From an uncultured Candidatus Saccharimonadales bacterium (GTDB taxonomy: Bacteria; Patescibacteriota; Saccharimonadia; UBA4664): 64,000 bases of DNA. Every line of letters begins with the position of its first letter. Positions within the stretch are counted from its first letter, which is position 1. The stretch lies in the NCBI GenBank assembly GCA_964505035.1, contig CAZDGK010000001.1, forward strand, positions 12,270 through 76,269, given 5' to 3'. Position numbers and translations under genes: made by a program. The notes under the pieces were generated by a model. The model did not search any database and was not told the origin of the DNA. It worked only from the letters and a program-made list of their open reading frames with translations. This document shows, piece by piece, positions 1 to 49,299 of this stretch.

Positions 1-13
1 GGATGTAGACTTT

Positions 14-3125: not shown

Positions 3126-3534
3126 CAAATAACTTTGTGGCTTACTGCCGGCCGGCATTACAACGAGATTGCCTGCTCTACCCTCAAGGATGTAGTACAT
3201 GAAATCTGACTCATGTTCAACGAGTGTGGTTTCGTGTCCATTTTCCGCGTCGATCAGTACAAAACCGGCTTTGTCGCTTAGTTCCCGGCTGGGAAATATT
3301 TTGCCTTAATGCCGACTTTATCAAAAGAAATAGTCGAGGGTTCATGAATTACATACATGCTGAGTGTATAGCGAATCTATGTCATAGCTATGTGGACCTT
3401 GCAAAAGTTTGGACATCCTATCTCTCCTGCCAGTAATTATCTATTTATTGCCTCCACAAAGCCCTGGCTGGTATACTATGCCAGACCTCAATCAGTCTGT
3501 CCGGATTCGTCCGGCAGCTCAGAAGGGTGGCGAC

Positions 3535-4041
3535 ATGTCCGACATACAGCCAATAACGAGCGGACCATGGTATTACTGTGCCCTCGTGACCATCCTCGTT
3601 GGATGGCCCCTCACGCTCGACGCGCTTTTGCGCTGGCCCTCCAGCTATCGCAAAGCCGGCCTGCACAAGTGGAAGTGGGTCACAGCGGCCCTCCTCTCCA
3701 ATCTGCTGTTCTACCCGGGGCTCGTCTTCGCGATCGTCTATCTCTTCAGCGCACGCGCTAAAATCAGGGCGACCAAACCCCGCCCCATACGCGATGCGTT
3801 CCGGGAAGCGAGAGAAACCAGCAACTCCGGCGGCTCCGGCAGCACCAGCGGCTCCACCACTGGTAGCGGACGGGGATCGACCGGCAGCAAGCGGCAATCG
3901 TTTATGCCGGACCGGCCGGCACATGTGCCAACCAAGCGGACACCCGTGCCCTGCGGCGCATGCCGGGCGACCGGACGCAACCCAGACGGCACCGTCTGCA
4001 CCTCGTGCGGCGGAAGCCGCAATGTGATTGGCACCTTCTAA
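3535..4041 (+). CDS. Small membrane protein (2-3 TM helices) with a C-terminal double CxxCxGxG (DnaJ-type) zinc-finger motif.
   Basis: An AGAAGGG Shine-Dalgarno (SD) sequence precedes the ATG at 3535. Hydrophobic segments present. C-terminus reads 'CGACRATGRNPDGTVCTSCGGSR'. An upstream in-frame extension to 3409 is possible. Confidence 0.5.
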   Translation: MSDIQPITSGPWYYCALVTILVGWPLTLDALLRWPSSYRKAGLHKWKWVTAALLSNLLFYPGLVFAIVYLFSARAKIRATKPRPIRDAFREARETSNSGGSGSTSGSTTGSGRGSTGSKRQSFMPDRPAHVPTKRTPVPCGACRATGRNPDGTVCTSCGGSRNVIGTF

Positions 4042-34756: not shown

Positions 34757-34945
34757 ATGAAACCACTCATCGAATACCTCACCGCCAGCCGGGCCGAGTT
34801 AGCCAAAGTAGCCTGGCCCAGCCGCCGCCAAACCGCCCGGCTAACGTTCCTCGTGATCGGGTTCTCGCTCGTATTCGCCGCCGCCCTCGGTTTACTCGAC
34901 TTCGCTTTCTCAGAGTTGCTCCGCCGCGTAATTATTAAGGGATAA
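34757..34945 (+). CDS. secE: Preprotein translocase SecE.
   Basis: 62 aa with a C-terminal TM helix. Directly upstream of nusG. Confidence 0.85.
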   Translation: MKPLIEYLTASRAELAKVAWPSRRQTARLTFLVIGFSLVFAAALGLLDFAFSELLRRVIIKG

Positions 34946-34947
34946 CT

Positions 34948-35490
34948 ATGTCCGAATCTGCCAAGACTAAGCACCACTGGTACGTCATTCACACCTACTC
35001 CGGCTACGAAGACCGCGTCGCCGAAAACCTGCGTCAGCGCATCGAGACCATGCACATGCAGGACAAAATCTTTGACGTCATCGTGCCCAAAGAAAACCAG
35101 ATCGAGATCAAAAACGGCCGCCGGCGCATCGTCGAGCGCCGCATCTTCCCCGGCTACGTCCTGGTGCAGATGGATGTTACCGAAGACTCTTGGTATGTCG
35201 TGCGTAACACTCCCAATGTCACCGGCTTCGTCGGATCCGGCACGACACCTACCGCCGTCAGCGAGGATGAGGTCCGCCACATCCAGAAGCGCATGGGCGT
35301 CGAAGAGCCCAAGTTTAAGATCGACTTTAGCGTTGGCGAAGCCGTCAACATCACCGACGGTCCCTTCAAGGGCTTCGACGGCATGGTCAATGAGATTGAC
35401 GAGAACAAGGGCAAGATCAAGGTCCTCGTCAACATGTTTGGCCGCGAAACGCCAGTCGAGCTCGACAGCCTCCAGGTCAAGAAGATCTAA
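34948..35490 (+). CDS. nusG: Transcription termination/antitermination factor NusG.
   Basis: 'HWYVIHTYSGYE' NGN domain and a C-terminal KOW domain. Confidence 0.95.
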   Translation: MSESAKTKHHWYVIHTYSGYEDRVAENLRQRIETMHMQDKIFDVIVPKENQIEIKNGRRRIVERRIFPGYVLVQMDVTEDSWYVVRNTPNVTGFVGSGTTPTAVSEDEVRHIQKRMGVEEPKFKIDFSVGEAVNITDGPFKGFDGMVNEIDENKGKIKVLVNMFGRETPVELDSLQVKKI

Positions 35491-35600
35491 CCGTTCCCGA
35501 TACTGGACTTCACAAACATCACCAAATCTGCTACTATACCGCAGATATTCGTTATAAGTGGGAGCCGCGAACCGGCGCTCGTACCACAAAGGAGTAACTC

Positions 35601-36032
35601 ATGGCAGTCGCCAAACCAGTCAAAGCCAACGTCAAATTCCGCCTCCAGGGCGGCAAAGCCACCCCGGCCCCGCCGGTCGGTTCGATTTTGGGCGCCCAGG
35701 GCGTCAACATGATGGACTTCGTCAACACCTTTAACGACCAAACCAAGGACCTGGGCGACCAGCTACTCAACGTCCGCGTGCGCATCTTTGAAGACCGCAC
35801 GTTCACCTTTACCTACACTGGCGAGACCATGGTCAGCCGCATTCGCAAGGCCTCGGGCCAAGACAAAGGCTCTGGCACTCCCAACAAGACCAAGGTCGGT
35901 AAGCTGACCAAGGCCCAGGTGCAAGAGCTAGCCGAAGCCAAAATGAAGGACATGAACGCTCACGAGCTCGCCGCCGCCATGAAGACCGTGGCCGGCACTG
36001 CCCGCTCCATGGGCATTGAGGTAGTTGATTAA
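35601..36032 (+). CDS. rplK: 50S ribosomal protein L11.
   Basis: 'KFRLQGGKATPAPPVG'. Confidence 0.95.
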   Translation: MAVAKPVKANVKFRLQGGKATPAPPVGSILGAQGVNMMDFVNTFNDQTKDLGDQLLNVRVRIFEDRTFTFTYTGETMVSRIRKASGQDKGSGTPNKTKVGKLTKAQVQELAEAKMKDMNAHELAAAMKTVAGTARSMGIEVVD

Positions 36033-36090
36033 CTAACCGTGGGAGGCTCTGCCCAAGCGCAAGCCGCACGCACCACAGGAGATTATTTAC

Positions 36091-37143
36091 ATGGCAACCA
36101 AGAAAAAAGTTGAAGACACCGTCGAAGAGGTCGTTGAAACCCCCGAAGCGACCGAAGCGGTAGAGGTTCTGGACACACCCGTCGAGCTCGTCACCGAAGC
36201 GCCGTCGGCCGACACGAGCAGCGACACCGGCGAGACTAGCGCAGACGAAACTGACGCAGACGAGACCGAAGAGGCCAAGATCGCCAAGGCCGGCAAGCGT
36301 AGCGCCAAGGCTGTCCGCGAGGCCGAAGCCGAAGAGGCCCGCCAGGAGGCCAAGGAGCACCGCGCCGAGACCGAGGCAGCCACCGACGCCGCCCCCAAAG
36401 CAGCCAAGCGCTCCACGCCCAACCCACTTCACCAGCACGGCAAGAAGTACCGCGAGGCCGCCAAGCTTGTCGACCGCACCAAGCAGTACGAGCTAGCCGA
36501 GGCCCTGGAACTTGCCCAGAAGACGAGCACCACCAAGTTTGACAGCTCCGTCGAGCTGCACATCAGCCTCGGTGTTGACCCTCGCCAAGCCGACCAAATG
36601 GTGCGCGCCAGCGTCGTGCTACCGCACGGTACCGGCCGCAGCCTGCGCGTCGCCGTCTTCGCCGATGGCAAGGCCGCCGATGACGCCAAGACCGCCGGCG
36701 CCGATATCGTGGGTACCGACAAACTGCTAGCCGACATCGAGGCCGGCAAGCTAGACTTTGACGTCCTGATCGCCACTCCCGACAAGATGGCCGGTCTCGG
36801 CAAAGTCGCCAAGGTTCTCGGTCCGCGCGGCCTCATGCCTAACCCCAAGTCCGGCACCGTCACCCCCGACGTCGCCAAGGCCGTCACCGAAACCAAGACC
36901 GGCAAGGTTGAGTTCCGTATCGACAAGCAAGCCATTGTGCACATCGCCGTCGGCAAAGTCAGCTTCAAGGCCGCCGATCTGCTCGACAATGCCACCACCC
37001 TCATCAAGGCCGTCCTAAAGGCCAAGCCGGCCGCTGCCAAGGGCACCTACGTGAAAACCATTGCCGTCACCACCTCCATGGGTCCCGGCATCAAAATCGA
37101 CGCTCCCACCACCACCAGCGCTCTGTCTACCAGCAAAAAGTAG
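36091..37143 (+). CDS. rplA: 50S ribosomal protein L1 with an acidic N-terminal extension of about 115 aa.
   Basis: The L1 core starts at '[21 protein letters not shown]'. A preceding Glu/Asp/Thr/Ala-rich segment is absent from typical 230-aa L1 proteins. Confidence 0.9.
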
Positions 37144-37187
37144 CCATTTAGCGCGCCATCTCATACAATCTGGGAAAGGGGAATGAG

Positions 37188-37787
37188 ATGGCAATTTCGA
37201 GTGGGATCTTTGGTGATGGCTCCAATTTTGAGCAACGCAACCTCGCCAACTATGAGGTCGTAGCCGAGAGCGTTCAGTTACTGAAGGCTCTCGGGCTCAA
37301 GATTGTCCTCACCGCCGGCTCGTTTGACCTCATTCACGAAGGCCACGCCCAGTATCTGGAGCGCGCCCGTCAGTTTGGCGACCTCCTCATCACTGGCGTC
37401 GACTCCGACGACAAGATCCGCCACCGCAAAGGCCCAGACCGGCCCATCGTGCCGCAGGCCGAGCGTTTGCGCATGTTGACGCATCTGCGCCACGTCGACT
37501 TAGTCGTGCTCAAGCCACTCGAGGCCGAGAAATGGGCGCTCATCAAAGCCGTCCGCCCCGACGTGCTAGTGGCCACCGAGGAGACCTACACCCAAGACCA
37601 GATCACCGAGCTCGAGCGGCTCTATTGTGGCCGCGTCGAAGTCCTTCCGCGCATGGCCACCACGACCACCTCGGCCAGGCTGCGCCTTCTCCAGCTCAAT
37701 CTCGCCGATCGCATGACCAGCCGCCTCGCCAATCAGCTGCCCGACATTGTCCGCCAAGTCATCCGCGACCAAATCGAAGGCCGCTAG
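37188..37787 (+). CDS. Cytidylyltransferase-like (HxGH) nucleotidyltransferase family protein.
   Basis: 'LTAGSFDLIHEGHAQYL' HxGH motif and 'ITGVDSDD'. Confidence 0.7.
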   Translation: MAISSGIFGDGSNFEQRNLANYEVVAESVQLLKALGLKIVLTAGSFDLIHEGHAQYLERARQFGDLLITGVDSDDKIRHRKGPDRPIVPQAERLRMLTHLRHVDLVVLKPLEAEKWALIKAVRPDVLVATEETYTQDQITELERLYCGRVEVLPRMATTTTSARLRLLQLNLADRMTSRLANQLPDIVRQVIRDQIEGR

Positions 37788-37790
37788 CCC

Positions 37791-38627
37791 ATGTCCAAGC
37801 AGCTGCTTGTCTACATTCCGGTTGTGCACGCCGGCTATATCACCCTGTTCGACCGCCACCTCGATGCCGACGAAGTATTATTAATTGGCCCTGACTTTAC
37901 TCGCGATTGGCCTATACTAGCCAAGGAAATTCGTGCCCTCGAGCCCAAACTTGCCCTCAGTAGTCTCCAGGCCATCTACCCGAGACTGCGGCTGCGCATC
38001 ATCGGACCGGCCGATCTGCCCAGTGCCGTCACCGCCACCACCCTGATCGCGCCAGCGGAGGACCTATTGCGGCATCTCATCAGTCATTATCACCTCGACC
38101 AGGGCCGGGATGTCCAATATGACCCAACCTTCCTACGCTGGGATCGCGACTCCAGCCGTGACGCACGTCCCGTCCAGCTCACCCCAGCCACGCCGCTGTC
38201 CGAACTCGACCAGTCCATGCTCGGTCTGGCCACGGATGCCGCGCGCCGCAGCTCCGACTGGTGGCGCCAAGTCGGCGCCGTCGCCGCCACGCCCACTGGC
38301 CCTCTCGTCGCCCACAATCACCACCTGCCCACGCCGTACGCACCCTACATCAGCGGCGATCCGCGCAACAACTTCCGCCGCGGCGAGTATCTGCAGCTAT
38401 CGACGGCCATTCATGCCGAGGCCGCCATCATCGCCCAGGCCGCCCGCCGGGGCATCAGCCTCCAGCGCACTACCATGTTCGTGACCACCTTTCCGTGCCC
38501 AGCGTGTGCCCGGCTCATCGCCGAGACCGGCATTGCCAAGCTGTATGTAGCCGACGCCTACAGCCTGCTCGACGGCGCCGATATCCTCGCCACCGCCGGT
38601 GTCGAAATCATTTGGGTCAAGACGTAG
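37791..38627 (+). CDS. Deoxycytidylate/cytidine deaminase-family protein with an extra N-terminal domain of about 140 aa.
   Basis: Zinc ligands 'HAEAAII' and 'PCPACARLI' at the C-terminus. Adjacent to thyA and folA. Confidence 0.75.
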   Translation: MSKQLLVYIPVVHAGYITLFDRHLDADEVLLIGPDFTRDWPILAKEIRALEPKLALSSLQAIYPRLRLRIIGPADLPSAVTATTLIAPAEDLLRHLISHYHLDQGRDVQYDPTFLRWDRDSSRDARPVQLTPATPLSELDQSMLGLATDAARRSSDWWRQVGAVAATPTGPLVAHNHHLPTPYAPYISGDPRNNFRRGEYLQLSTAIHAEAAIIAQAARRGISLQRTTMFVTTFPCPACARLIAETGIAKLYVADAYSLLDGADILATAGVEIIWVKT

Positions 38628-38669
38628 AAAGCCCCTTGTTCTCTGATCGCAAGAACAAGGGGCTTCGGC

Positions 38670-39125
38670 TCAAGCGGCCGGTCGCCCGGTTAGCTTGACC
38701 TTGATCGGCTCGTGAGCGGGATCATTGGTGTCGCCCACGACCACATGAGCGTGGACGTGGAAGATGGTGCCGGCAGTGTGGGCCGGGTGACCATTGCGAA
38801 CGAAGAAGCCGTAGTGCTCAAACTCAAATCTGAGCCTCAGCACCCTCAGCAGCCACCCCAGCTCCATCCAAGCCTCGGGGCTCAGATCGGCCACATCGGT
38901 GATGTGTTGCTTGGGTAGTAGCAAGAAGTGCAGTCTGGAGCCAGCATAAGGAAATTGGTTGAACGTCACCGCCCAATAATCCGCCTCCTCAATGATTGGC
39001 CCCTCCTGCTCGGCGGCGAGATGCTCCGGGCAAAACATGCAAATACCCGATTCCTCCAGCCGCACCATCTTGGCCCGCTGCTCGTCAGTGCGCGCATTGG
39101 GCAGATAGTAGAGTGGCCTATTCAT
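38670..39125 (-). CDS. HIT (histidine-triad) family hydrolase.
   Basis: 'HVHAHVV' HxHxHxx motif. The start is taken at the internal Met so as not to overlap folA. Confidence 0.8.
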   Translation of the reverse strand: MNRPLYYLPNARTDEQRAKMVRLEESGICMFCPEHLAAEQEGPIIEEADYWAVTFNQFPYAGSRLHFLLLPKQHITDVADLSPEAWMELGWLLRVLRLRFEFEHYGFFVRNGHPAHTAGTIFHVHAHVVVGDTNDPAHEPIKVKLTGRPAA

Positions 39126-39672
39126 CCTGCCACGTCCTCGCTCGGTACGACATTCGTTCCCAGTACCGAACTCCGGTCGGAAACTGGTCTCGCTCGTCGT
39201 ACTGCTTGCACGACTCGATGCGCACCAGCCGGAAGCTGCCAAGCCAATCGAGTGGCATAAACGCATCCGCGCCGGCCACCCTTGTCTCAACCACCGTCTG
39301 GTAGATCCGGTCTGTCCGGCCCAGACATTGGCTATAGACCGCCGCGCCGCCGATGACAAATACCTCGTCATCGCCGTTTTCCTGGGCCAGACACTCTGCC
39401 CGGTCCAGAGCCGCTCCAACACTCCCTGCCCACTCGACGCCCTCCAGGGGCGGCCGGTCGGGCTGATGTGTCGCCACCACGCAGGTGCGGCCAGGCAATG
39501 ATTTGCCCAACCGCGCCACGATCGAGGCGTGAGTCCGCGAGCCAACCACCAGCACGTGGCCGGTGGTCAGCTCGCGAAACCGCTTGAGGTCGCTGGGGAT
39601 GTGCCAGGGCAAATCATTGCCCCGGCCAATCGCTCCAGCGCGGTCCGTTGCTACCACCATCGAGATGGTCAT
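39118..39672 (-). CDS. folA: Dihydrofolate reductase.
   Basis: 'ISMVVATDRAGAIGRGNDLPWHIPSDLKRF'. 4-nt overlap with thyA. Confidence 0.85.
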   Translation of the reverse strand: MTISMVVATDRAGAIGRGNDLPWHIPSDLKRFRELTTGHVLVVGSRTHASIVARLGKSLPGRTCVVATHQPDRPPLEGVEWAGSVGAALDRAECLAQENGDDEVFVIGGAAVYSQCLGRTDRIYQTVVETRVAGADAFMPLDWLGSFRLVRIESCKQYDERDQFPTGVRYWERMSYRARTWQDE

Positions 39673-40562
39673 GGTAGCACCGGCATGCGCAGACCCGGAT
39701 GCGGGTCGTAGTCGAACAGCTCAAAGTGCTCGGCCCGGAAGTCATGGATGTCCGTGATCTTCTGGCCGGCCACCGTCAGAGCCACCGTCGGCAATCGCCG
39801 CGGCTCGCGATACAGCATGGTACGAACGTACTGCAGCTGGCCGGAGTAGATGTGTGCATCCGAGATGGTGTGATAGTACACGCCCGCCGGAATCCCGGTG
39901 AGCTGCTCCAGCATCAGCAGGAGCGCCGCGTACTGCACCATGTTGGACGGCACGCCGCCCGGCACATCGCCACTGCGCTGGAACATGTGCAAATGCAGCC
40001 GCCCGTTTAGGACGCGCACGTGCACCCAGCCGTGACAGGGCGCGATGGTGGTTTTGGGCGTCTTACCCTTGCCACGCACCTGGTACTGCGGGATCCACGG
40101 ACTCACGAAGTGCGTCCGGTCGTCCGGCAGCTCGCGGATCTGCTCCACCAGGTGCTGGTACTGGTCGAAGGGCGGACCCTCAGCAGTGGGAAAGTATCGA
40201 AACGCCCCACCGTAGAATCCAGGACCCATCGTGCCCGGCGGCAGGCCACGCTTGGCGGTCTTCTCGGGCGTCGCCCAAGGATCCCACCAGTCGCAGCCAA
40301 ATGCCTCCATCTCGTCCAGGCTAGTCGCGCCGTTGATAAACGCGCACAGTTCGCCGATTGGCTTACGCCAGAAGCCGTTGAGGCTCCGATCGGTGATCAT
40401 CGGGAAACCATTGGCCAGCTCGAACTTCATTACCTGCTGCATCAGCGTCAATGCCACTTCACCCTGACGGGTGGGCACCTCTTCGCCAGCGGTCACAATA
40501 TTGTGCAACAGCTGGCGGTATTGGCTGTCCGGCTCGCGCCTTTCGTATGCAAGGTACTTCAC
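39669..40562 (-). CDS. thyA: Thymidylate synthase (ThyA family) with a divergent N-terminal region.
   Basis: Catalytic 'APCHGW'. 'MFQRSGDVPGGVPSNMVQYAALLLMLEQLTGIPAGVYYHTISDAHIY'. Probable GTG start after AAAGGGGGG; the ORF runs to 40616. Confidence 0.75.
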   Translation of the reverse strand: MKYLAYERREPDSQYRQLLHNIVTAGEEVPTRQGEVALTLMQQVMKFELANGFPMITDRSLNGFWRKPIGELCAFINGATSLDEMEAFGCDWWDPWATPEKTAKRGLPPGTMGPGFYGGAFRYFPTAEGPPFDQYQHLVEQIRELPDDRTHFVSPWIPQYQVRGKGKTPKTTIAPCHGWVHVRVLNGRLHLHMFQRSGDVPGGVPSNMVQYAALLLMLEQLTGIPAGVYYHTISDAHIYSGQLQYVRTMLYREPRRLPTVALTVAGQKITDIHDFRAEHFELFDYDPHPGLRMPVLP

Positions 40563-40682
40563 TGGACCCCCCTTTCTATCGGTATAAGGGCCAGCCGCCA
40601 CACTGTACCATAGCACCCACAGATCTGCTATACTCCTTGGCAGTCTGCCGCAAGGGCAGCCAGTTCCTAGAAGGGAAGTCCC

Positions 40683-41105
40683 ATGACAAAGGGGCCAACG
40701 CCCCGGGCTGTTGGCGCGCTGGTCATAAGCCGCGATCTGATCCTGCTCATGCGGCGCGGCCGGGCCGTGCTCTGGTCCGCACCGTGCGGCGAGCTCTCCG
40801 GAGCAGACCAGGCTGCAGCTGCCACTGAATTGGCCAAGAAACAGGCCTATGCCATCGTGCAGCCGCAGCGGTTAGTCGGCATCACCACCGATTTTGGTGA
40901 CGTTCTCGGCCCAATCGCCTGGTGGAGCTGCACTCTGCTGCAGCCACTGCCGGGTAGCGATGATCCCAGCTATCAATTGCTGGGAGCCGACTACCGGCAC
41001 CTGGAGTGGGTCAAACTCCAGGACGTCAGCCACTACCCGCTAGTCCCGGCGTTGCACCAACTCTTCGCCGGGCACTACGCCAACCTGGAGCTGTTCTTCA
41101 GCTAG
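40683..41105 (+). CDS. Hypothetical protein, possibly a degenerate NUDIX fold.
   Basis: 'GALVISRDLILLMRRGRA' resembles a NUDIX N-terminal strand, but no canonical Nudix box is present. Confidence 0.35.
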   Translation: MTKGPTPRAVGALVISRDLILLMRRGRAVLWSAPCGELSGADQAAAATELAKKQAYAIVQPQRLVGITTDFGDVLGPIAWWSCTLLQPLPGSDDPSYQLLGADYRHLEWVKLQDVSHYPLVPALHQLFAGHYANLELFFS

Positions 41106-41162
41106 ACTAAGCCGGGGGGTCGCCACATTTGGCACCTCCGGCTTCTCCATATTCAGACTATA

Positions 41163-42419
41163 ATGACAATTATGAATCAACTTGTCCGCCTCACTCGCCA
41201 CGAAGCCGCTCGCCAACGAGACACCCTCAATCTCATCGCCTCCGAGAATTATCCCTCGCCAAGCACGCTGGCACTCCTTGGTAGTGTCTGGTCAAACAAA
41301 TACGCCGAGGGGCAGCCCGGCAAGCGCTATTATGCCGGCAATGTCTATGCCGACGAGCTGGAGAGTTTCGTCCAAGCCAAAGCCCTAGCCATCTTCGACT
41401 CCACCGGCGAGTATGGCGCAAATGTCCAGGTATTGTCCGGCTCGCCCGCCAATGCCACCGTATTCCTCGCTGCCCTCGCCGCCGGCGACACCGTCATGAG
41501 CCTCAATCTCGCCAATGGCGGCCACCTCAGCCACCTGCACGCCACCTCCAACTACCTCAAGTTCTTCCGGCTCATCAATTATGACGTCGTGGCCACCGCC
41601 CACGGCTACGAGATCGACCAGGCCGACTACCAAGCCAAATTGACCGAGCACCAGCCCAAGCTCGTCATCATCGGCTTCTCGGCCTACCCTCGCGCCTACC
41701 AGTTTGAGCCTCTCATCAAGCTTGCCCACCGGCATGGCGCGCTGGTGCTGGCCGATATCGCTCACATTGCCGGCCTAGTGGCCGCTGGTCTGCACGACAG
41801 CCCATTCAAACCGGGCGCAGCCGGCGCCGATTACGTTTCCATGACCACCCACAAAACCCTACGGGGGCCCCGCGGCGCCCTACTCTTTGCCAAGCACCAG
41901 CACCTCGCCGAACTCAACCGCACCGTCTTCCCGGGCACCTCGGGCGGTCCGCACCTGCACCAAATCGCCGCCACCGGCCAGGCCTTGCTCGAGGTGCTCG
42001 GCGAGGACCAATACCCCGACCGCCGGCCGTTCCCAGAGTATGCCAAGGCCATTATCAGCACCTGCCGCGCCCTTGAAGCCGGGCTAAACGATGGGGGACT
42101 CGCCGCCATTTCGCCCACCCAGACCCACCTCACTCTCACCCAGCTCCCACCCGAGCTCGATAGTCTCGACGTCCAGCGGCGCCTCGAGTCGCTCGGCCTC
42201 ATCCTCAATCGCAATCTCATTCCCTTTGACGCCAAGACCGCCTGGCGCCCCAGTGGTTTGCGCCTCGGCACCGCCGCGCTGGCCAGCCGTGGCCTCACAC
42301 CAGAGTCAGCCCGCACTCTAGGCCAGCTCATTGCCGATATCGTCCTGCGCCGCCTACCGGACGCAGCGGCTCAGCGGCGCGTCAAAGACCTGGTCGCCCA
42401 GCTCGCCTGGTGGTATTAA
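41163..42419 (+). CDS. glyA: Serine hydroxymethyltransferase.
   Basis: 'LIASENYPSP...' and the PLP-lysine region 'TTHKTLRGPRG'. Confidence 0.95.
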   Translation: MTIMNQLVRLTRHEAARQRDTLNLIASENYPSPSTLALLGSVWSNKYAEGQPGKRYYAGNVYADELESFVQAKALAIFDSTGEYGANVQVLSGSPANATVFLAALAAGDTVMSLNLANGGHLSHLHATSNYLKFFRLINYDVVATAHGYEIDQADYQAKLTEHQPKLVIIGFSAYPRAYQFEPLIKLAHRHGALVLADIAHIAGLVAAGLHDSPFKPGAAGADYVSMTTHKTLRGPRGALLFAKHQHLAELNRTVFPGTSGGPHLHQIAATGQALLEVLGEDQYPDRRPFPEYAKAIISTCRALEAGLNDGGLAAISPTQTHLTLTQLPPELDSLDVQRRLESLGLILNRNLIPFDAKTAWRPSGLRLGTAALASRGLTPESARTLGQLIADIVLRRLPDAAAQRRVKDLVAQLAWWY

Positions 42420-42472
42420 CTTTAAAACCGGCTGCCGAGTAATCCTCGGGCAGCCGGTCAGTGGGGTAGCGT

Positions 42473-43681
42473 TCATATGCTAACCCGCAGCCTGACAGGA
42501 GCATTTACCACTTCCGCGTATAGTTCCGTCATAGCTTCTGCCGTGTGGTTCCAGCCGTAGCGGGCATGCACCCGCCGCGCCGCCGCCTTGCCGTACTTGC
42601 GACGCAGCGCCGCATCACCAAGCAGCTCGCTGATAGCGCTAGTCAGCCCAGCGCGATCGCCCGGCATAACCTGCCGGCCGGTACTGCCATCTACCACACT
42701 GTCAATCAGACCTCCCACAGCATAGGTTACCACCGGCACACCACAGGCCATCGCCTCTAGCGGCGTCAAGCCAAACGGTTCATACCAGGGTGTGCACGTC
42801 ACGAGGTCGGCCGAGCGGTACCAGCTCGCCATCTCCGATGCCGGAACCGCACCCACCAACTGCACCTGATCGGTCACACCGAGCGCGTCAGCCAGCTGGT
42901 ACAGTCGCCTAAACTCCGGGTCACGATCAGCCCCATGTTCGGGCCCGCCCACCACCACCAGCTCGACGCCGGGCAGGTTAGGCAGGATCCGAATCACCTC
43001 CTCGAACCCCTTGCGCGGAACGGGTCGGCCAACTGCCAGTAGCCGGGGCCCGGTCTTATTGACCGTCGGCCCGCGCGGCTGAAACTGGTTCAGATCAATG
43101 CCGGAAGGAATGAGCCGGATTTGGGTAGCGGGGACGCCAAGAGCCATTAGTTCGGCCACCTCATCGCTACATTGAGCCACGACTCGCTGCACCACCAGGG
43201 CCAGCTGCCGTTCAATCGACATCCGCCCCGCCGGACTAGTATCGTCCTGGCGCTGGAAACGTCGCTTGACGTTGCCGTGAGCATGATAGGTCAGCACAAC
43301 CGGAATCTGCCGCGGCATCGCCCCCCGCAACGCCGCGATTCCGCTCATCCAGAAGTGGGCATGAACCACATCCGGCCGCCTCTTCGACTCCGCAAACCGA
43401 CTGCTCAGCCAGCTGCCAAATGGCACCATATAGGGCATGAGCTCGTCCTTGGGCACGCCTTCGGGAGGACCCACGGGCACATGCACCACCTCATACCCCC
43501 CTGGAGCGCTGATGCGCCCGGCCCTGACCATGCTGTCGCGCCGGGTGTAGACCGTCACTTCGTGACCCACCGCCACCAGCGCCGCAGCCAGACCGGCCAC
43601 GTGTCGATTTTGCCCACCGGCGTCAATTCCGCTAATCGTTGCCAGCGGGCTGGCATGCTCTGACACAAGTGCAATCCTCAT
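42473..43681 (-). CDS. GT4 glycosyltransferase (MshA/BshA-like retaining family).
   Basis: 'MRIALVSEHASPLA...GGQNRHV' N-terminus and a C-terminal EX7E-type region. ATG at 43679-43681. Confidence 0.8.
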   Translation of the reverse strand: MRIALVSEHASPLATISGIDAGGQNRHVAGLAAALVAVGHEVTVYTRRDSMVRAGRISAPGGYEVVHVPVGPPEGVPKDELMPYMVPFGSWLSSRFAESKRRPDVVHAHFWMSGIAALRGAMPRQIPVVLTYHAHGNVKRRFQRQDDTSPAGRMSIERQLALVVQRVVAQCSDEVAELMALGVPATQIRLIPSGIDLNQFQPRGPTVNKTGPRLLAVGRPVPRKGFEEVIRILPNLPGVELVVVGGPEHGADRDPEFRRLYQLADALGVTDQVQLVGAVPASEMASWYRSADLVTCTPWYEPFGLTPLEAMACGVPVVTYAVGGLIDSVVDGSTGRQVMPGDRAGLTSAISELLGDAALRRKYGKAAARRVHARYGWNHTAEAMTELYAEVVNAPVRLRVSI

Positions 43682-43819
43682 GCCGCACCCCCCGTTGGGT
43701 TGCAACATCGGGGATCAAGGTACTTCACCGGACACTCCCTTCTATTTGTGAGAATTAGCGCCAGCCGGGGCACTCTACCACAACCTTTGCCAACACGCAC
43801 CGTTAGTACTTACAAAAGC

Positions 43820-43848
43820 TTGACGCTCACGCTCAAATCCGCTAATAT
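43820..43848 (+). promoter_or_regulatory. Sigma70-type promoter (TTGACG, 17-nt spacer, TAATAT) for rplJL.
   Basis: TTGACG at 43820-43825 and TAATAT at 43843-43848. Confidence 0.45.
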
Positions 43849-43854
43849 TACTCT

Positions 43855-43997
43855 CGTTCACCGTAGACAGTGGCCGTGCTGGTAACCACCAGTGCTTAAT
43901 CCGCCACCGAGGTAATCCACAACCGGATAACTTCAAACTGTCTCTTTGGTGTTCGCCCAAGAGATTTTTTAAATGCTTAAAGCAAAAGGGAAGTGAC
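43855..43997 (+). promoter_or_regulatory. Probable rplJ (L10) autoregulatory leader.
   Basis: A structured 5'-UTR of about 140 nt sits between the promoter and the rplJ AUG, in the position of the conserved L10 leader. Confidence 0.3.
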
Positions 43998-44528
43998 ATG
44001 GCCATTTCTCGTGAGGCCAAGGAGTCGGCGGTAGCTCAGCTAACGCAGGACCTCAGCCACATCAAATTGGCCGTCATGACCGACTACCGCGGTCTCACCG
44101 TCGGTGAAGTAGAGGAGTTGCGCAATCTGCTCCGTGCTCAGGGTATGACCTACCGGGTCACCAAGAACACGCTGCTGCGCATCGCCACCAAAGCCAATGC
44201 GGCCCTGGCCGACATTGACCCACAGAGCTTCACCGGCCCCATGGCCCTGGCGATGGGCTTTGATGATGAAGTGGCTCCGGCCCGCGTCATCTTCCAGTAC
44301 GCCAAGGCGCATGACGCGCTTGAGGTGGTAGGCGCCATCACCGGCGACGGACAGCTATTATCTGCCGCCGACGTGAAGGCCCTGGCCACGCTACCCACTC
44401 GCGAGCAACTCATTGCTCAGGTGGTCGGCACCATCGCGGCACCCCTCACCGGGTTTGTCGGTGTCATGGCGGGCAACGTCCGCTCCATCATTAATGTTCT
44501 AAACGCTCTGAGCGAAGCTCGGGCCTAA
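43998..44528 (+). CDS. rplJ: 50S ribosomal protein L10.
   Basis: Size, conserved N-terminal region and position next to rplL. Confidence 0.9.
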   Translation: MAISREAKESAVAQLTQDLSHIKLAVMTDYRGLTVGEVEELRNLLRAQGMTYRVTKNTLLRIATKANAALADIDPQSFTGPMALAMGFDDEVAPARVIFQYAKAHDALEVVGAITGDGQLLSAADVKALATLPTREQLIAQVVGTIAAPLTGFVGVMAGNVRSIINVLNALSEARA

Positions 44529-44550
44529 GCAATAGCAAAGGAACCTATCA

Positions 44551-44994
44551 ATGGCAGAAGACAAGGTCGAAACGACCGAAACCACCGAGACCGAAACGGT
44601 TGAGATCCCCAAGAAGTTTAAGGAGCTAGTCGAGGCTATCGACAAGCTCAGCGTGCTGGAGCTCAGCGAGCTCGTCAAGGTGCTCGAGAAGCACTACGGC
44701 GTGTCCGCTGCCGCCCCCATGGCTGTAGCCGCTGCTCCGGCCGCTGCTGGTGACGGCGAAGGTGCCGCTGCCGCCGAGGAGAAGACCACCTTCACCGTGG
44801 TACTAGCCGACGCTGGTGCCAACAAGATCAATGTCATCAAGGCCGTTCGTGAGATCACCGGCCTGGGCCTGGCCGAGTCCAAGGCTCTGGTCGACGGCGC
44901 CCCCAAGCCGGTCAAGGAAAATGTCTCCAAGACCGACGCCGAAGACGCCAAGGCCAAGCTGACCGAGGCCGGCGCCACCGTCGAGCTCCAGTAA
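44551..44994 (+). CDS. rplL: 50S ribosomal protein L7/L12.
   Basis: Ala-rich hinge and '[24 protein letters not shown]'. Confidence 0.95.
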
Positions 44995-45018
44995 GCCAGT
45001 CCTGTCCATACCAAAAAT

Positions 45019-45040
45019 GAGCCCACCCGGGCTCTTTTTT
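45019..45040 (+). terminator. Rho-independent terminator after rplL.
   Basis: GAGCCC-accc-GGGCTC followed by TTTTTT. Confidence 0.6.
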
Positions 45041-45054
45041 GATATGATCGGCGT

Positions 45055-45834
45055 ATGACACCCGAGAATGGACCCAACCAAGCCCACGAGTTTACCGCCA
45101 AGGACCAAGCCGAGCTGCTATCCCTGCTCGGCCACCACGATGCCGAATCGAGCACCGAAGGCGTCGAGCACCTCGAGCCAGCCACCGGCAGCGACATGTT
45201 CCGCGACTTCCAAGCCACCTTCATGCTCGGCAATGGCGGCGCCACTGGCCAAGAGGCCGCCATGCGGCTGATGGCCGGCGCCTACCGTCGCAACACTACC
45301 GGACCAGAGCTCCAAGCCGCCACCGCCGAAGCCAACCAGCGTATCGCCGACCTACGCATACCCAATAAGCACGCGCCCATACCGGTTGCCCAGTACGGCG
45401 CTTATGCCATCAACTCAGCCGACAATCTTCTCAAGGGCAGCTCCTTTGTCGATCGCTGGGCCGTTTTTCAGGGCCTCATTCTTGGTCAGCTGACACCACC
45501 CAGAGCGGCCACCCAGCAACAGCTCAGACAAGACATCATTACCAGCGCACTCCAAATGGATGTCCGCTACATTACTGAAGGCCGGAAAGGACGCGAGAAG
45601 AGTGGCGACCCTCACGAGAGCATCTATCGCGAATATATCCTCGGCGACAGTCTGCGTGGCAGTGATTACGTCATCGCACTCCGGGATGCTCTGCGCGAAA
45701 CCGCCCTCGAAATGGTCCAGTCCGGCCACATGCCGCCCCAGCTAGCCGAAGTTGTGCAGCTATGGGAGGCCCATCATCCCGGCCAGCGTTTCTTTGATCT
45801 GCCCGCTCCGCGCCAGCGCCCTAAATCAAATTGA
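45055..45834 (+). CDS. Hypothetical protein, occupying the position where rpoB normally follows rplL.
   Basis: TATGAT lies 7 nt upstream of the ATG. 259 aa. No motif I recognise. Confidence 0.5.
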   Translation: MTPENGPNQAHEFTAKDQAELLSLLGHHDAESSTEGVEHLEPATGSDMFRDFQATFMLGNGGATGQEAAMRLMAGAYRRNTTGPELQAATAEANQRIADLRIPNKHAPIPVAQYGAYAINSADNLLKGSSFVDRWAVFQGLILGQLTPPRAATQQQLRQDIITSALQMDVRYITEGRKGREKSGDPHESIYREYILGDSLRGSDYVIALRDALRETALEMVQSGHMPPQLAEVVQLWEAHHPGQRFFDLPAPRQRPKSN

Positions 45835-45872
45835 AGCCCCCCGACCATGCGTCAGGGGGCAAAAGGGCAGGC

Positions 45873-46181
45873 TCATTCCGCCAGCAGGATCCGCACTGAC
45901 GGACAATCCGCCAGGCTGCTCAGCAGCACGTCGACACCCAGTCGCTCGTCTTCGATCCGGGCCTGTCCCAAGTCCATATGACTGGGCAAATCCTTGATCT
46001 TGTCCGTGCACCTAGGGTCGATAACCAAATGTGGCTCCACCTGAAATGACAGAATTGCCGGCCCGAGCACCAGCCATTTAGCTGGCTGCAGGTCGCCAAT
46101 GTCAACCAGGCAGTCGATCACACTGAGTTCGCCGGGGTTGAGCGGGTGGCTGTCTGCGTCGATCGCAAACCGGACCCACAT
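45873..46181 (-). CDS. Hypothetical small protein, possibly a degenerate ferredoxin-like fold.
   Basis: 'IDAD...' N-terminus and 'CPSVRILLAE' C-terminus recall single-cluster ferredoxins, but only 3 Cys are present. GC3-biased. Confidence 0.3.
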   Translation of the reverse strand: MWVRFAIDADSHPLNPGELSVIDCLVDIGDLQPAKWLVLGPAILSFQVEPHLVIDPRCTDKIKDLPSHMDLGQARIEDERLGVDVLLSSLADCPSVRILLAE

Positions 46182-46256
46182 ATACTCAAGACCTCCTCGG
46201 GTCTAAGACGCGCCTCAGGTTTGTTATATACTAAGTCTGACATTGGAGGCAATATT

Positions 46257-46667
46257 ATGGACCACACCACGTTAAACCCGTACCTCAACTTTGGTGGCAA
46301 CGCCCGCGAAGCCATGGAATTCTACCACGGCATCTTTGGTGGCAAGCTCGACATCCAGACCTTTGGCCAGACCCCCGGCATGGACGTGCCAGCCGGCTAC
46401 GAGGACAAGGTGCTGCATGCCCATCTGAAATTTGGCCAGGTCATCATCATGGCCTCCGAAACCCAGCCCGGCACCCAGCCCGTAGTTGGCAACAACGTCC
46501 ACCTCAGTCTCAACGGCCAGGACAAAGAGGTAATCACCCAGTGGTTCAATGCCCTAGCCGAGGGCGGCAAAGTCGACATGCCTCTAGCCGAGCAATTCTG
46601 GGGCGACACATTTGGTATGCTCACGGACAAGTTTGGTATCCATTGGATGGCCAATATCGAAAAGTAG
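46257..46667 (+). CDS. VOC-family / PhnB-like (glyoxalase-fold) protein.
   Basis: 'YLNFGGNAREAMEFYHGIFGG'. GGAGG lies 9 nt upstream of the ATG. Confidence 0.7.
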   Translation: MDHTTLNPYLNFGGNAREAMEFYHGIFGGKLDIQTFGQTPGMDVPAGYEDKVLHAHLKFGQVIIMASETQPGTQPVVGNNVHLSLNGQDKEVITQWFNALAEGGKVDMPLAEQFWGDTFGMLTDKFGIHWMANIEK

Positions 46668-46707
46668 TTTTGACTTTGTTCGTGGGCTGTAGTATTAATA
46701 AGGCCAG

Positions 46708-47271
46708 TTGGAGTTATACCTAAAACAAAGGGATGGTGGAGTGGCCGAATTTACCGACAAGCAGTTAAAGACTCTCAAAAAATTAATCGAAACCGCCGAG
46801 ACCAATCTGGCGGGGGCCAAGGAATTATTAACGAGTCTAGTCGGCTCAGACGATACTGTCGCGCCGGCCTCTGCCGTGAACGCCGCCAAAGCCGGCGATA
46901 TGAGCAGTGGCAAAGTCATCGAGGGTGCCTTCGACGGCCAACACATGATCGGCCCCGACGGCAAGAATTATCCTGTGCCCGCCAACTACGCATCCAAGAG
47001 CAAGCTGGTCCAGGGCGACCTGCTCAAGCTAATCATTGGCGATGACGGTAGTTTCATCTACAAGCAAATCGGCCCAGTCGAGCGCAAAAAGCTCATCGGC
47101 ACGCTCAACCTCAAGGACGGTGCCTACTTCGTGGAGGCCCGCGGCAAGGAATATCACGTTCTATTCGCCAGCGTCACCTATTTCAAGGCTCAGCCAGGCG
47201 ACCAAGTCACCATGGTGATCCCCGACGAGGGCGACGCCGACTGGGCAGCCATTGAAGCCGTCATCGGCTAA
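46708..47271 (+). CDS. Hypothetical protein.
   Basis: 187-aa ORF. The start is uncertain: TTG at 46708, or GTG at 46741 after AAGGGA. Confidence 0.45.
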   Translation: MELYLKQRDGGVAEFTDKQLKTLKKLIETAETNLAGAKELLTSLVGSDDTVAPASAVNAAKAGDMSSGKVIEGAFDGQHMIGPDGKNYPVPANYASKSKLVQGDLLKLIIGDDGSFIYKQIGPVERKKLIGTLNLKDGAYFVEARGKEYHVLFASVTYFKAQPGDQVTMVIPDEGDADWAAIEAVIG

Positions 47272-47326
47272 TGTTATAACACGTAGACACCAGCCAGCTC
47301 TTTGACCGCACGAATCGAGGTGAGCT

Positions 47327-47668
47327 ATGACTGGCACCGCCGAGCAGACATTGCTCGTCACGGACGGCCCCAAGCAAGGCGCCCTGCTGCGGCTAGGCCT
47401 GTTCTGGATCGTCTCCAGTTCTGGGCCTCCCCGCGCTCTGCTGCTGCGGGCGTGGCTGGATGGGCGCAATACCCACCAGCTCTTCACGCTCATGGCAGAG
47501 CATTGGCAGGAAAATACACCCGGACAATGGGTACTGCACGGCCAGGTGTTCGACACCCTGCCCGGAGGAGATCCCAGCGAGTCGCTGGGCCTCTACGTAG
47601 TGCGCTACAACGCCTGGTCGGGCCAAGGCTTCGGCCGTCCAACCTCACCGGCGCCCCATCTCGTGTGA
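47327..47668 (+). CDS. Hypothetical protein.
   Basis: GAGGTGAG lies 5 nt upstream of the ATG. 113 aa. Confidence 0.5.
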   Translation: MTGTAEQTLLVTDGPKQGALLRLGLFWIVSSSGPPRALLLRAWLDGRNTHQLFTLMAEHWQENTPGQWVLHGQVFDTLPGGDPSESLGLYVVRYNAWSGQGFGRPTSPAPHLV

Positions 47669-47796: not shown

Positions 47797-49299
47797 GTGG
47801 AAGGGGTGGCTGATCTGGCACTGTACCGGAAGTACCGGAGTGCGCACTTTGACGACGTCATTGGACAAGACCACGTCGTTAAAACCATCACAACTGCCAT
47901 CAAAAATGGCCGGTTGTCTCATGCGTACCTGTTTACCGGCCCAAGAGGGGTGGGGAAGACGAGTGTCGCTAGGCTATTAGCCCGCGCTCTCAACTGCACG
48001 GATCAGCAGTCTAGACCATGCAATGAGTGTGCCAATTGCAAGGCCAGCCTAAACGCCTCTCTCGACATCATTGAAATCGACGCCGCCAGCAACCGGTCGA
48101 TTGACTCAGTGCGAGAGCTTCGCGACAAGATCAATCTGGCGCCGGCCATCGGCAGCTACAAAGTCTACATCATCGACGAGGTCCATATGCTAACCAGTGA
48201 GGCTTTTAATGCGCTGCTGAAAACGCTTGAGGAGCCACCCGCCCATGCTGTATTCATCCTGGCGACTACCGAAGCCCACAAGGTGCCCGAAACGATCATC
48301 TCCAGAACCCAGAGATTCAACTTTAAGCCCATCACCCCGGCCGACATCATCAAACACCTAGAAATGATCGCCAAGAGCGAAAAAATCGCCATCGAGCCCG
48401 CCGGCCTCGAAGTCATCGCTGGCGTAGCGCGCGGCAGCTTCCGTGATGCCATCAGCATTCTCGACCAAATGAGCTCCAGTGGCGAGCAGCCCATTACCGC
48501 CAGCGGCGTGCGGCTGCTCCTAGGACTTAGCGATAGCGAAGCCGTCGCCACCGTCAGCCGCGCCATGGCAGCCGGCGACGCCAAGGCCGCTGTCGAAGCG
48601 CTCACCACCGTGCTAGCAGGCGGCGCGCAGCCCGGCCAGATCGCCGCTCAGCTGGCCAGCCAATGGCGCGAAGCGCTGCTGGTCACCGTCGGCGCCGCCA
48701 CGGCCACCGACGACACGACCCGCGACCTTGCCGCCCAGCTCTCACCCTCAGCCATCGGCACCATCATCGAGGAATTGCTGGCTGTCACTCGGTCACACTG
48801 GCCACGCGAGAGCCTTGAAGTAGCCGTGATTCGCCTGGCCGCGCCAGCCGCCGAGCCACCGCGCCCGGCCGCCCCGGCGCGCGCTCAGGCCACCACCGCC
48901 GCGGGCGCCACCACTGCTCCTGCAGCCACCGCGCCCACTCCAGCCGCTCCGACTAGTGAGCCGTCAGCCGACGTCGAGCTCTGGCCCAAGGTCCTCGTCA
49001 TGCTCAAGACCAAGAATAACTCGCTCTGCGCTCTGCTCCAGATGTACCCTGTCGAGTTCAAAGACGGCAAAATCGTCATCAAGTCCCGCTTCAATTTCCA
49101 CCGGGACCTGTTCCTGAAGGTCCAAAACCGCTCCGTCATTGAGGATGCCGTCCAGAAGGTCTACGGCCGCCCCATCCCAGTCACCGCCATCACCGACGAG
49201 GCCGCCGCTGGCCGCCCCGCCAAAAAACTCGCCGACCCCAGTGCCGAGCTCATTTCCTCGGCCCTGGAGATCCTGGGTGGGGAAGTAGTGGAGGAATAG
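47797..49299 (+). CDS. dnaX: DNA polymerase III gamma/tau subunit.
   Basis: 'LYRKYRSAHFDDVIGQDHV...LFTGPRGVGKTS' Walker A. 'IDEVHML'. Ala/Pro-rich linker. Confidence 0.9.
   Translation: MEGVADLALYRKYRSAHFDDVIGQDHVVKTITTAIKNGRLSHAYLFTGPRGVGKTSVARLLARALNCTDQQSRPCNECANCKASLNASLDIIEIDAASNRSIDSVRELRDKINLAPAIGSYKVYIIDEVHMLTSEAFNALLKTLEEPPAHAVFILATTEAHKVPETIISRTQRFNFKPITPADIIKHLEMIAKSEKIAIEPAGLEVIAGVARGSFRDAISILDQMSSSGEQPITASGVRLLLGLSDSEAVATVSRAMAAGDAKAAVEALTTVLAGGAQPGQIAAQLASQWREALLVTVGAATATDDTTRDLAAQLSPSAIGTIIEELLAVTRSHWPRESLEVAVIRLAAPAAEPPRPAAPARAQATTAAGATTAPAATAPTPAAPTSEPSADVELWPKVLVMLKTKNNSLCALLQMYPVEFKDGKIVIKSRFNFHRDLFLKVQNRSVIEDAVQKVYGRPIPVTAITDEAAAGRPAKKLADPSAELISSALEILGGEVVEE

Follow-up and report, generated by a model that had tools for sequence, protein, structure and literature searches.

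A thymidylate-cycle island between the rplKA and rplJL operons is very probably part of the inherited gene order of Saccharimonadia

When a ribosomal-protein gene cluster that is contiguous in many bacteria is found interrupted by several kilobases of metabolic genes, does this record a recent rearrangement of one genome or the way in which a whole lineage arranges these genes? The question is raised by a 64,000-nucleotide stretch of contig CAZDGK010000001.1 (GenBank assembly GCA_964505035.1, positions 12,270 to 76,269; hereafter the window) from an uncultured Candidatus Saccharimonadales bacterium, a soil organism of relatively high GC content (about 60%) that belongs to the Saccharimonadia within the candidate phyla radiation (CPR/Patescibacteria). 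In the window, the genes secE-nusG-rplK-rplA lie apart from rplJ-rplL, and rpoB and rpoC do not follow rplL. A preliminary description, made from the letters of the DNA alone, presented this as a possibly novel rearrangement, in which a 7-kb insertion had split the cluster and rplJL had acquired a promoter and a leader of its own. By combining family searches, synteny with relatives and sequence comparisons, we conclude that the split and the missing rplL-rpoB link are very probably the normal, inherited gene order of Saccharimonadia and not a fresh rearrangement, whereas a part of the DNA lodged in the gap is likely to be of actinomycete-type origin. We found no published description of this arrangement in Saccharibacteria or Saccharimonadia.

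Genes in the window were called as six-frame open reading frames (ORFs) and assigned by Pfam and NCBIfam family searches. On the plus strand, secE (34757–34945; Pfam SecE, 58 bits) and nusG (34948–35490; Pfam NusG, 107 bits) lie directly 5′ of rplK, which encodes L11 (35601–36032; Pfam Ribosomal_L11_N/L11), and rplK is adjacent to rplA, which encodes an L1 of 350 residues (36091–37143; Pfam Ribosomal_L1), with successive gaps of 2, 110 and 58 bp. The genes for L10, rplJ (43998–44528; Pfam Ribosomal_L10), and L7/L12, rplL (44551–44994; Pfam Ribosomal_L12_N and Ribosomal_L12), follow on the same strand after 6,854 bp. The split is thus real, and the gap holds eight genes: a cytidylyltransferase-like nucleotidyltransferase (NT; 37188–37787, plus strand), a 278-residue dCMP-deaminase domain protein (37791–38627, plus), an HIT family gene (38670–39125, minus), folA (39118–39672, minus), thyA (39669–40562, minus), an ORF of 140 codons (40683–41105, plus), glyA (41163–42419, plus) and an MshA-like GT4 glycosyltransferase (42473–43708, minus) that is divergent from rplJ and matches Pfam Glycos_transf_1 and Glyco_transf_4. 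The preliminary description had counted nine, of which it named only these eight.

The arrangement does not look like an artefact of assembly, a possibility that the preliminary description had raised. In a second assembly (GCA_035479255.1), contig DATIIW010000190.1 matches window positions 37886–42245 at 99.77% identity (10 mismatches) and carries the dCMP-deaminase-like gene, HIT, folA, thyA, the 140-codon ORF and glyA, while contig DATIIW010000179.1 matches positions 42992–47510 at 100% and carries GT4, rplJ, rplL, a 259-codon ORF and the genes beyond it. Of the four internal junctions, three are thereby reproduced at 99.8–100% identity, and GC content (0.59–0.64) and GC content at third codon positions (GC3; 0.70–0.84) are flat across all junctions. 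Since a second assembly reproduces these three junctions, mis-assembly is very unlikely.

Most of the answer comes from relatives. These, together with non-Saccharibacterial controls, were collected partly by a contig search with an rplA alignment that returned at least 80 loci, 10 of them from Saccharibacteria among the matches listed; we refer to loci by L numbers and call them close relatives where they lie on independent long contigs with an L1 70–82% identical to that of the window, and distant Saccharimonadia where L1 identity is 55–60%. NusG is 93–97% identical in close relatives. Across L082, L084, L085/L100, L095 and L104, the distance from rplA to rplJ is 5.9–9.0 kb, and thyA, folA and glyA lie inside the interval in every case. 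From rplA to rplJ, L082 (a contig of 829 kb) carries dcd, folA, thyA, dCMP deaminase, tmk, an ORF, glyA, IS1595, DAHP synthase and another ORF; L084 (527 kb) carries ORFs, tdk, dcd, tmk, thyA, folA, glyA, mazG and further ORFs; L085/L100 (435 and 506 kb) carry an aminotransferase, NT, dCMP deaminase, HIT, folA, thyA, glyA and three ORFs; L095 (525 kb) carries dcd, tmk, thyA, folA and glyA; and L104 carries dcd, tmk, folA, thyA, glyA and three ORFs. The same island extends to the contig ends in L090 and L092, and the distant L002, L003, L008, L017 and L073 hold thyA, folA, dcd, tmk or NT in a gap of 5.3–9.7 kb. Compared with related genomes, as the preliminary description had proposed, the split thus proved common to related lineages, the outcome that it had itself named as pointing to an ancestral arrangement.

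The nusG-rplK junction is also broken in some relatives, with inserts of 2–3 kb in L082 (L082:7763-9567, with an IS1595 transposase), L092 (L092:6829-9564), L008 and L017; in the animal-associated L023 and L078, nusG and/or rplK are inverted relative to rplA. The whole supercluster is therefore eroded in Saccharimonadia.

The second broken link, between rplL and rpoB, follows the same pattern. As the preliminary description had stated, rplL is followed in the window by an intrinsic terminator (45019–45040, plus strand; hairpin GAGCCCACCCGGGCTC, then TTTTTT) and then by an ORF of 259 codons (45055–45834, plus) instead of rpoB. The longest ORF in the window has 824 codons, so rpoB and rpoC are absent from the whole 64 kb, that is, from about 34 kb upstream and 19 kb downstream; the other large ORFs encode ATP synthase subunits, tRNA synthetases, kinases, glycosyltransferases, TatC and similar proteins. 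Likewise, in none of the Saccharimonadia loci examined does an rpoB-sized ORF lie closer than 10 kb to rplKA or rplJL. Two long ORFs were considered as candidates and rejected: that of L010 (1,232 residues) is a ricin-lectin surface protein and that of L023 (1,058 residues) an ABC/FtsX transporter.

What follows rplL in this class is instead a protein of 176–187 residues, present in every Saccharimonadia locus that is long enough and accompanied by dnaX-dnaB where the contig reaches; it lies after rplL in all 13 of 13 close relatives as well as in L002, L006, L008, L010, L017, L023 and L078. In the window it has 187 residues (46708–47271, plus) and lies between a glyoxalase-family gene (46146–46667, plus; Pfam) and the Pfam-assigned dnaX (47797–49299, plus) and dnaB (49301–50710, plus). 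The protein is clade-specific, sits in a housekeeping neighbourhood and has no Pfam, NCBIfam, PHROG or PADLOC match; its identity across Saccharimonadia is 55–87%, always between rplL and dnaX-dnaB. The 259-codon ORF had no match in Pfam, NCBIfam, PHROG or PADLOC and no counterpart in relatives, and the slot right after rplL is variable, differing even between the near-identical strains L100 and L104 (L104:11149-11803). As a separate observation, four metagenome contigs of about 60% GC (L115 and L117-L119), whose rplJ is 42–43% identical, represent another lineage in which rplJ-rplL stand alone: the 10 kb upstream contain no rplA, and no rpoB-sized ORF comes directly after rplL.

By its sequence, rplJL looks like a self-contained unit. 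A sigma-70-like promoter, TTGACG-17-TAATAT, is found at 43820–43848 (plus strand; consensus scan and direct reading), the motif that the preliminary description had named, and its −35 motif GCTTGACGC is conserved in the close relatives L084 and L085. Positions 43843–43980 (plus) match the L10 leader of Rfam (RF00557) with 42.5 bits (E = 4e-4); this is 1.5 bits under the gathering score of 44 because the apical hairpin is longer than that of the model (18 nt compared to 9). The leader ends 18 nt before the rplJ ATG and comprises the kink-turn helix for L10(L12)n, then a terminator-like stem (GTCTCTTTGG..CCAAGAGA), then TTTTTT. Orthologous leaders lie upstream of rplJ in six relatives and score 47.8–61.5 bits, all above the gathering threshold. 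Their alignment shows an invariant core, AGACAGU(G/A)GC...CUUAAU..GC(C/U)ACCGAGG, with compensatory changes at three of the eight predicted pairs of the conserved helix, and the terminator stem and T-run are conserved too. In L006, which has just 306 bp between rplA and rplJ, the leader fills this spacer and again exceeds the RF00557 threshold.

Three ribosomal-protein leaders have a wide distribution across phyla, and the L10(L12)4-binding one is among them; its Rfam model takes in the terminator (PMC3616713). That rplJL acquired its promoter and leader, as the preliminary description had it, is not supported: the leader is ancestral, it is kept where rplA and rplJ are adjacent, and the −35 box is conserved. 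As judged from sequence, rplJL is an old, autonomous unit with an ancestral leader and a predicted promoter and terminator of its own. By analogy with the characterised leaders of the RF00557 family, L10(L12)n would bind the window leader and, as this ends in a terminator hairpin, would shut rplJL off by attenuation. The rplK and rplJ genes of model bacteria have separate promoters, at which transcription mainly starts (PMC12993453), so the break sits at a natural operon boundary and nothing regulatory needed to be invented. In Saccharimonadia, secE-nusG-rplKA and rplJL are presumably separate transcription units.

What, then, lies between the two units? ThyA scores 159.5 bits on TIGR03284 (cut-off 108.35), aligns end to end with solved thymidylate synthases and keeps their APCH, QRSxDV, PxN and DxHIY motifs. 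FolA, a dihydrofolate reductase (DHFR_1, 126 bits), and GlyA, a serine hydroxymethyltransferase (NF000586, 370.6 bits, cut-off 335), likewise pass their family thresholds. We considered whether ThyA might be a hydroxymethylase paralogue acting in base modification and rejected this, as it retains both the catalytic Cys and the Asn that specifies dUMP; the 4-bp overlap of thyA with folA also agrees with a true thymidylate synthase, whose reaction alone uses up the reducing power of tetrahydrofolate. The products of ThyA are deoxythymidine monophosphate (dTMP) and dihydrofolate, which FolA converts back to tetrahydrofolate; GlyA then loads this with a one-carbon unit, and dCMP deaminase or dcd supply dUMP. 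By their family assignments, ThyA, FolA and GlyA together make up the thymidylate cycle, and the dCMP deaminase or dcd, tmk, tdk, dut and MazG of relatives belong to the same pyrimidine-deoxynucleotide theme. We picture a long-standing thymidylate-cycle or pyrimidine-deoxynucleotide island between the rplKA and rplJL units, with rpoBC presumably encoded elsewhere in the genomes of the lineage.

The genes of this island appear to have different histories. GlyA is 69–74% identical in close relatives, comparable to L1 (70–82%), and glyA lies 0.36–1.6 kb upstream of rplJ in all eight of the eight close metagenomic relatives with upstream sequence; on these comparisons it is a stable anchor next to rplJ that appears vertically inherited. 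The identity to close relatives is much lower for ThyA (27–40%, and 66% for L104), FolA (28–48%), NT (32–44%) and the dCMP-deaminase-like protein (about 36%). The window ThyA matches more than 100 database clusters at 73–78% identity, and, leaving aside a self-hit (Candidatus Saccharimonas sp.), all named matches at 74–78% are Actinomycetes (Plantactinospora, Actinokineospora, Rugosimonospora, Streptacidiphilus, Catellatospora, Planosporangium, Mycobacteriales and Micromonosporaceae). The two best unnamed matches lie on contigs of 67–68% GC (L088 and L089), among genes for acyl-CoA dehydrogenase, citrate synthase and flavohaemoglobin, and both contigs carry the same five genes (NT, dCMP-deaminase-like, HIT, folA and thyA; mixed strands, 37188–40562 in the window) in the same order and orientation, with thyA-folA-HIT convergent with the deaminase-NT pair. 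Identities to these contigs are 76–77% for ThyA, 60% for NT, 51–53% for the deaminase-like protein, 47% for HIT and 42–44% for FolA. All five genes are closer to L088/L089 than to L085, which has the same architecture at 29–37% identity.

In a neighbour-joining tree of 20 ThyA sequences, the window groups with Actinomycetes, with L104 as the next branch, and the remaining Saccharibacterial ThyAs fall into four or more deep, separate lineages; among the sampled Saccharimonadia, only the window organism and L104 carry this ThyA type. The GT4 tells a similar story: its best database matches are 55–62% identical, every named one comes from Micromonosporaceae or Nocardia, its best NCBIfam match is MshA (211 bits, below the cut-off of 462.5), and other genes occupy its position in L082, L084 and L085. 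We regard it as likely, from similarity and gene order, that the five-gene cassette and GT4 are of actinomycete-type origin, and, more speculatively, their matches might point to a Micromonosporaceae-like donor. The view of the inserted DNA as acquired, implicit in the preliminary description, hence probably holds for the five-gene block and GT4, which are actinomycete-like, but not for the split itself or for glyA, which are very probably inherited. Beside this, we note that the pairing of NT (HldE domain II-like) with a dCMP-deaminase-domain protein of 270–280 residues recurs at window 37188–38627, L088:8119-9584 and L089:9814-11336, that this protein has an N-terminal region of about 135 residues with no assigned function, and that the pair adjoins thyA-folA-HIT in both actinomycete-type contigs and in some Saccharimonadia.

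Turnover of such genes is visible in L100 and L104, whose flanks are 97.9–98.7% identical and whose cassettes are unrelated: 4.4 kb with AT4-NT-dCMPd-HIT-folA-thyA (AT4 and dCMPd denoting aminotransferase and dCMP-deaminase genes) in L100 (L100:2797-7189) and 2.8 kb with dcd-tmk-folA-thyA in L104 (L104:4364-7188), the swapped stretch running from about 230 bp after rplA to the start of glyA. On this sequence comparison, the half of the island next to rplA behaves as an exchangeable cassette, varying even between strains with flanks about 98% identical. With at least five deeply divergent ThyA types at the same locus across Saccharimonadia, the interval after rplA might more generally be a strain-level replacement hot spot for thymidylate cassettes, some of them captured from Actinomycetes, a generalization that we find conceivable without favouring it; the direction and number of transfers are deduced from these similarities. 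Cultured Saccharibacteria have hosts restricted to Actinobacteria (PMC11659515), and one study reported little evidence of transfer between the host–epibiont pairs that it profiled (PMC8406219). That the donor was the host of the epibiont is a tentative proposal, and a rather doubtful one.

Several observations weigh against parts of this reading. The position of rpoBC was found neither in this genome nor in any relative, and some rplA-rplJ gaps are short, at 306 bp in L006 and 0.8–2.2 kb in L023, L078 and L010, the latter three being animal-associated genomes. The comparison, which is one of gene order, is compatible both with an arrangement ancestral to the class and with an early gain within a single large subclade, the other members of the class having lost it or never had it. 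The promoter, the terminator and the autoregulation of rplJL are predictions. The junction between rplA and NT (37143–37188) falls outside the second assembly, although relatives have homologous genes there. As for the transfer, its evidence consists of similarity and a simple neighbour-joining tree, the ‘actinomycete’ identity of L088/L089 is deduced from GC content, gene content and named database matches and not from a taxonomic marker, and the block bears no compositional trace of import (GC3 of 0.70–0.80 compared to 0.70–0.84 in flanking genes), so that the transfer is not very recent.

The last point also speaks for an alternative account of the cassette, in which the likeness to Actinomycetes stems from an old Saccharibacterial gene type donated to them, or from extreme rate variation among vertically inherited genes. 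The same ThyA type in a second Saccharibacterial strain (L104, 66% identical to the window) fits this as well. Against it stand the many clusters filled by this type, whose named members span several actinomycete families, the greater closeness of the window ThyA to Actinomycetes (74–78%) than to L104, the fact that all five genes and their order are common to L088 and L089, and the 70–82% identity of the flanking rplA and glyA in the very relatives whose ThyA is 27–40% identical. We thus consider this account improbable and retain an actinomycete-type origin for the cassette.

Less probable still is that a mobile element, or a defence island against phages with, for example, a nucleotide-depleting deaminase and a ‘conflict-system’ GT4, landed by chance between the two operons. 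The Pfam family GT4-conflict does match the GT4 (60 bits), models of anti-phage dCTP deaminases match the deaminase locally, parts of the L082 cluster have IS1595 transposases beside them, and the cassette is swapped between near-identical strains. However, the defence matches of the deaminase cover a zinc-binding motif of about 55 residues in a model of 630 positions (64 bits compared to a cut-off of 400), PADLOC and PHROGs return only generic nucleotide-metabolism or motif-level matches, and none in PADLOC for the GT4. There is no tRNA in the window, no integrase or transposase among the eight genes, and no island-type terminal repeats were found. Moreover, the gene set is a coherent housekeeping pathway, and the only copies of thyA, folA and glyA seen are those at the conserved locus.

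This leaves the rearrangement proposed at the outset, a recent, genome-specific event in which a 7-kb insertion split rplKAJL-rpoBC, rpoBC moved away and rplJL evolved a promoter and leader. Its appeal comes from other phyla. Non-Saccharibacterial loci from the same searches served as controls, of which, among the loci listed, 64 are informative for rplA-rplJ and 38 for rplL-rpoB: in 41 of 64 the distance from rplA to rplJ is below 1 kb, in 10 it is 1–3 kb, and in 13 (including Collinsella and Mycobacterium) rplJ is not found within at least 9 kb, while an rpoB-sized ORF follows rplL in 27 of 38 and is missing in the other 11. Many high-GC metagenome contigs show the full nusG-rplKAJL-rpoBC order, whereas loci from Mycobacterium, Collinsella, Micromonospora and Pseudonocardiaceae have gaps of 2 kb to more than 10 kb after rplA. 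The canonical order is thus common, yet far from universal, and it is true that this genome has gained some of the inserted DNA anew, namely the five-gene block and GT4. But all close relatives and several to many distant ones have the same split, none has rpoB after rplL, and the leader and −35 box are conserved across the lineage, the leader also in other phyla (PMC3616713). These relatives are not mis-binned copies of the window organism, as their proteins are 70–82% identical and their islands differ in content. A recent rearrangement is therefore highly improbable.

We give next to no weight to an assembly chimera that joined actinomycete DNA into a Saccharibacterial contig at 37.1–44.0 kb: soil metagenomes hold both groups and the best matches of ThyA and GT4 are Actinomycetes, but identity to these is 42–78% and not near 100%, GC3 is as in the neighbouring genes, the region has 59–64% GC compared to 67–68% in L088/L089, the actinomycete-like genes are interleaved with a native glyA, the second assembly contains both the run from the dCMP-deaminase gene to glyA (99.77%) and that from GT4 to the 259-codon ORF (100%), and homologous islands occupy the same place in relatives.

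With gene order in Saccharimonadia accounted for in this way, some features of the window deserve description in their own right. From spacing and orientation, the island probably comprises four transcription units. The first would be NT with the deaminase gene, possibly read through from rplA, from which NT is separated by 45 bp with no terminator found in this spacer and with a weak promoter-like site at 37141–37169. The second would be thyA-folA-HIT on the minus strand, ending at an inverted repeat of two perfect 14-bp arms around a 9-nt loop (38629–38665, found by repeat search) that it has in common with the convergent deaminase gene and that, to go by its position, is probably a bidirectional terminator. 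The 140-codon ORF with glyA would form the third, and GT4, on the minus strand and divergent from rplJ, the fourth. For the 140-codon ORF, the preliminary description had suggested a NUDIX-like identity, which finds no support, since NUDIX_4 gives E = 0.066 and 13.4 bits (cut-off 35) and NCBIfam gives no match. The ORF has no significant match in Pfam, NCBIfam, PHROG or PADLOC and no similarity to the 137-codon ORF at the same position in L082; its gene call is present in the second assembly and its GC3 is 0.77.

A 30-nt direct repeat, with 26 of 30 positions identical, occurs on the minus strand at 40550–40579 and 43716–43745, and the similarity runs on to about 65 nt with TGGTAnAGT boxes. 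The first copy contains the thyA Shine–Dalgarno sequence, its GTG start and its first four codons, and the second lies just upstream of GT4 with the same codons out of frame. The copies lie at the 5′ ends of both minus-strand units and bracket ORF140-glyA-GT4, not the imported block; they may be either a duplicated promoter or leader or the scar of a rearrangement.

Elsewhere, the L1 domain recognised by Pfam is limited to residues 143–332 of the 350-residue L1. Hundreds of homologues of this protein, from Patescibacteria/Saccharibacteria, are 62–80% identical and all 320–370 residues long, and these keep, with invariant residues, an N-terminal extension of about 120 residues (window 36091–36450) that is first acidic and then rich in Lys, Ala and Glu. 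At the start of the window, positions 1–4000 are a compositional outlier (48–55% GC) with a PPDK-like gene (651–3125) whose GC3 is 0.51, compared to 0.70–0.84 for all other genes checked, and may be foreign DNA.

By itself, the operon split matters little, as the cluster is known to break at the same boundary in several lineages, but it cautions against reading CPR gene order through an Escherichia coli template. Of somewhat wider interest is that a presumably essential module for dTMP synthesis keeps its position between the two ribosomal operons while its genes are exchanged as a cassette, in this genome for genes of likely actinomycete origin. As concrete evidence, this strengthens the case for gene flow from Actinomycetes to soil Saccharibacteria, and it offers a testable handle on hosts. 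If the donor was the host, the locus would mark the host identity of uncultured soil epibionts, and dTMP supply would be under unusual selection in Saccharibacteria.

How does this locus compare with known systems? As in the canonical cluster of E. coli, Vibrio and many phyla, the pairs secE-nusG, rplK-rplA and rplJ-rplL are intact in the window and rplJ has its own promoter and leader; unlike there, 6.85 kb with eight unrelated genes separate rplA from rplJ, and a terminator follows rplL where the canonical cluster has an attenuator and rpoB. The window leader resembles RF00557 in lying directly 5′ of rplJ, in a kink-turn helix that shows compensatory changes and in a terminator stem and U-run, and departs from it in the longer apical hairpin, with a score just under the gathering threshold. 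The five-gene cassette resembles the module of L088/L089 in its genes, order, orientation and thyA-folA overlap, with 42–78% protein identity, but the actinomycete-type module sits among ordinary metabolic genes and that of the window between ribosomal operons.

Breaks in the rplKAJL-rpoBC cluster have precedents. In Mycobacterium tuberculosis, rplKA and rplJL are, we presume, about nine genes apart. Genes also lie between rplKA and rplJL in Bradyrhizobium diazoefficiens and Actinomyces israelii (PMC12993453), and the wider cluster ‘can be altered’, with nrdHEF, for the synthesis of deoxynucleoside triphosphates (dNTPs), after rplL in Lactobacillaceae (PMC8046335). The window arrangement is one more example of this known break, as a clade trait: like those of Bradyrhizobium, Actinomyces, Lactobacillaceae and mycobacteria, it falls at the same operon boundary and takes in metabolic genes, which in Lactobacillaceae too are dNTP genes, but it differs from them in belonging to a CPR phylum, in having the thymidylate cycle as its insert and in the loss of both junctions across a lineage.

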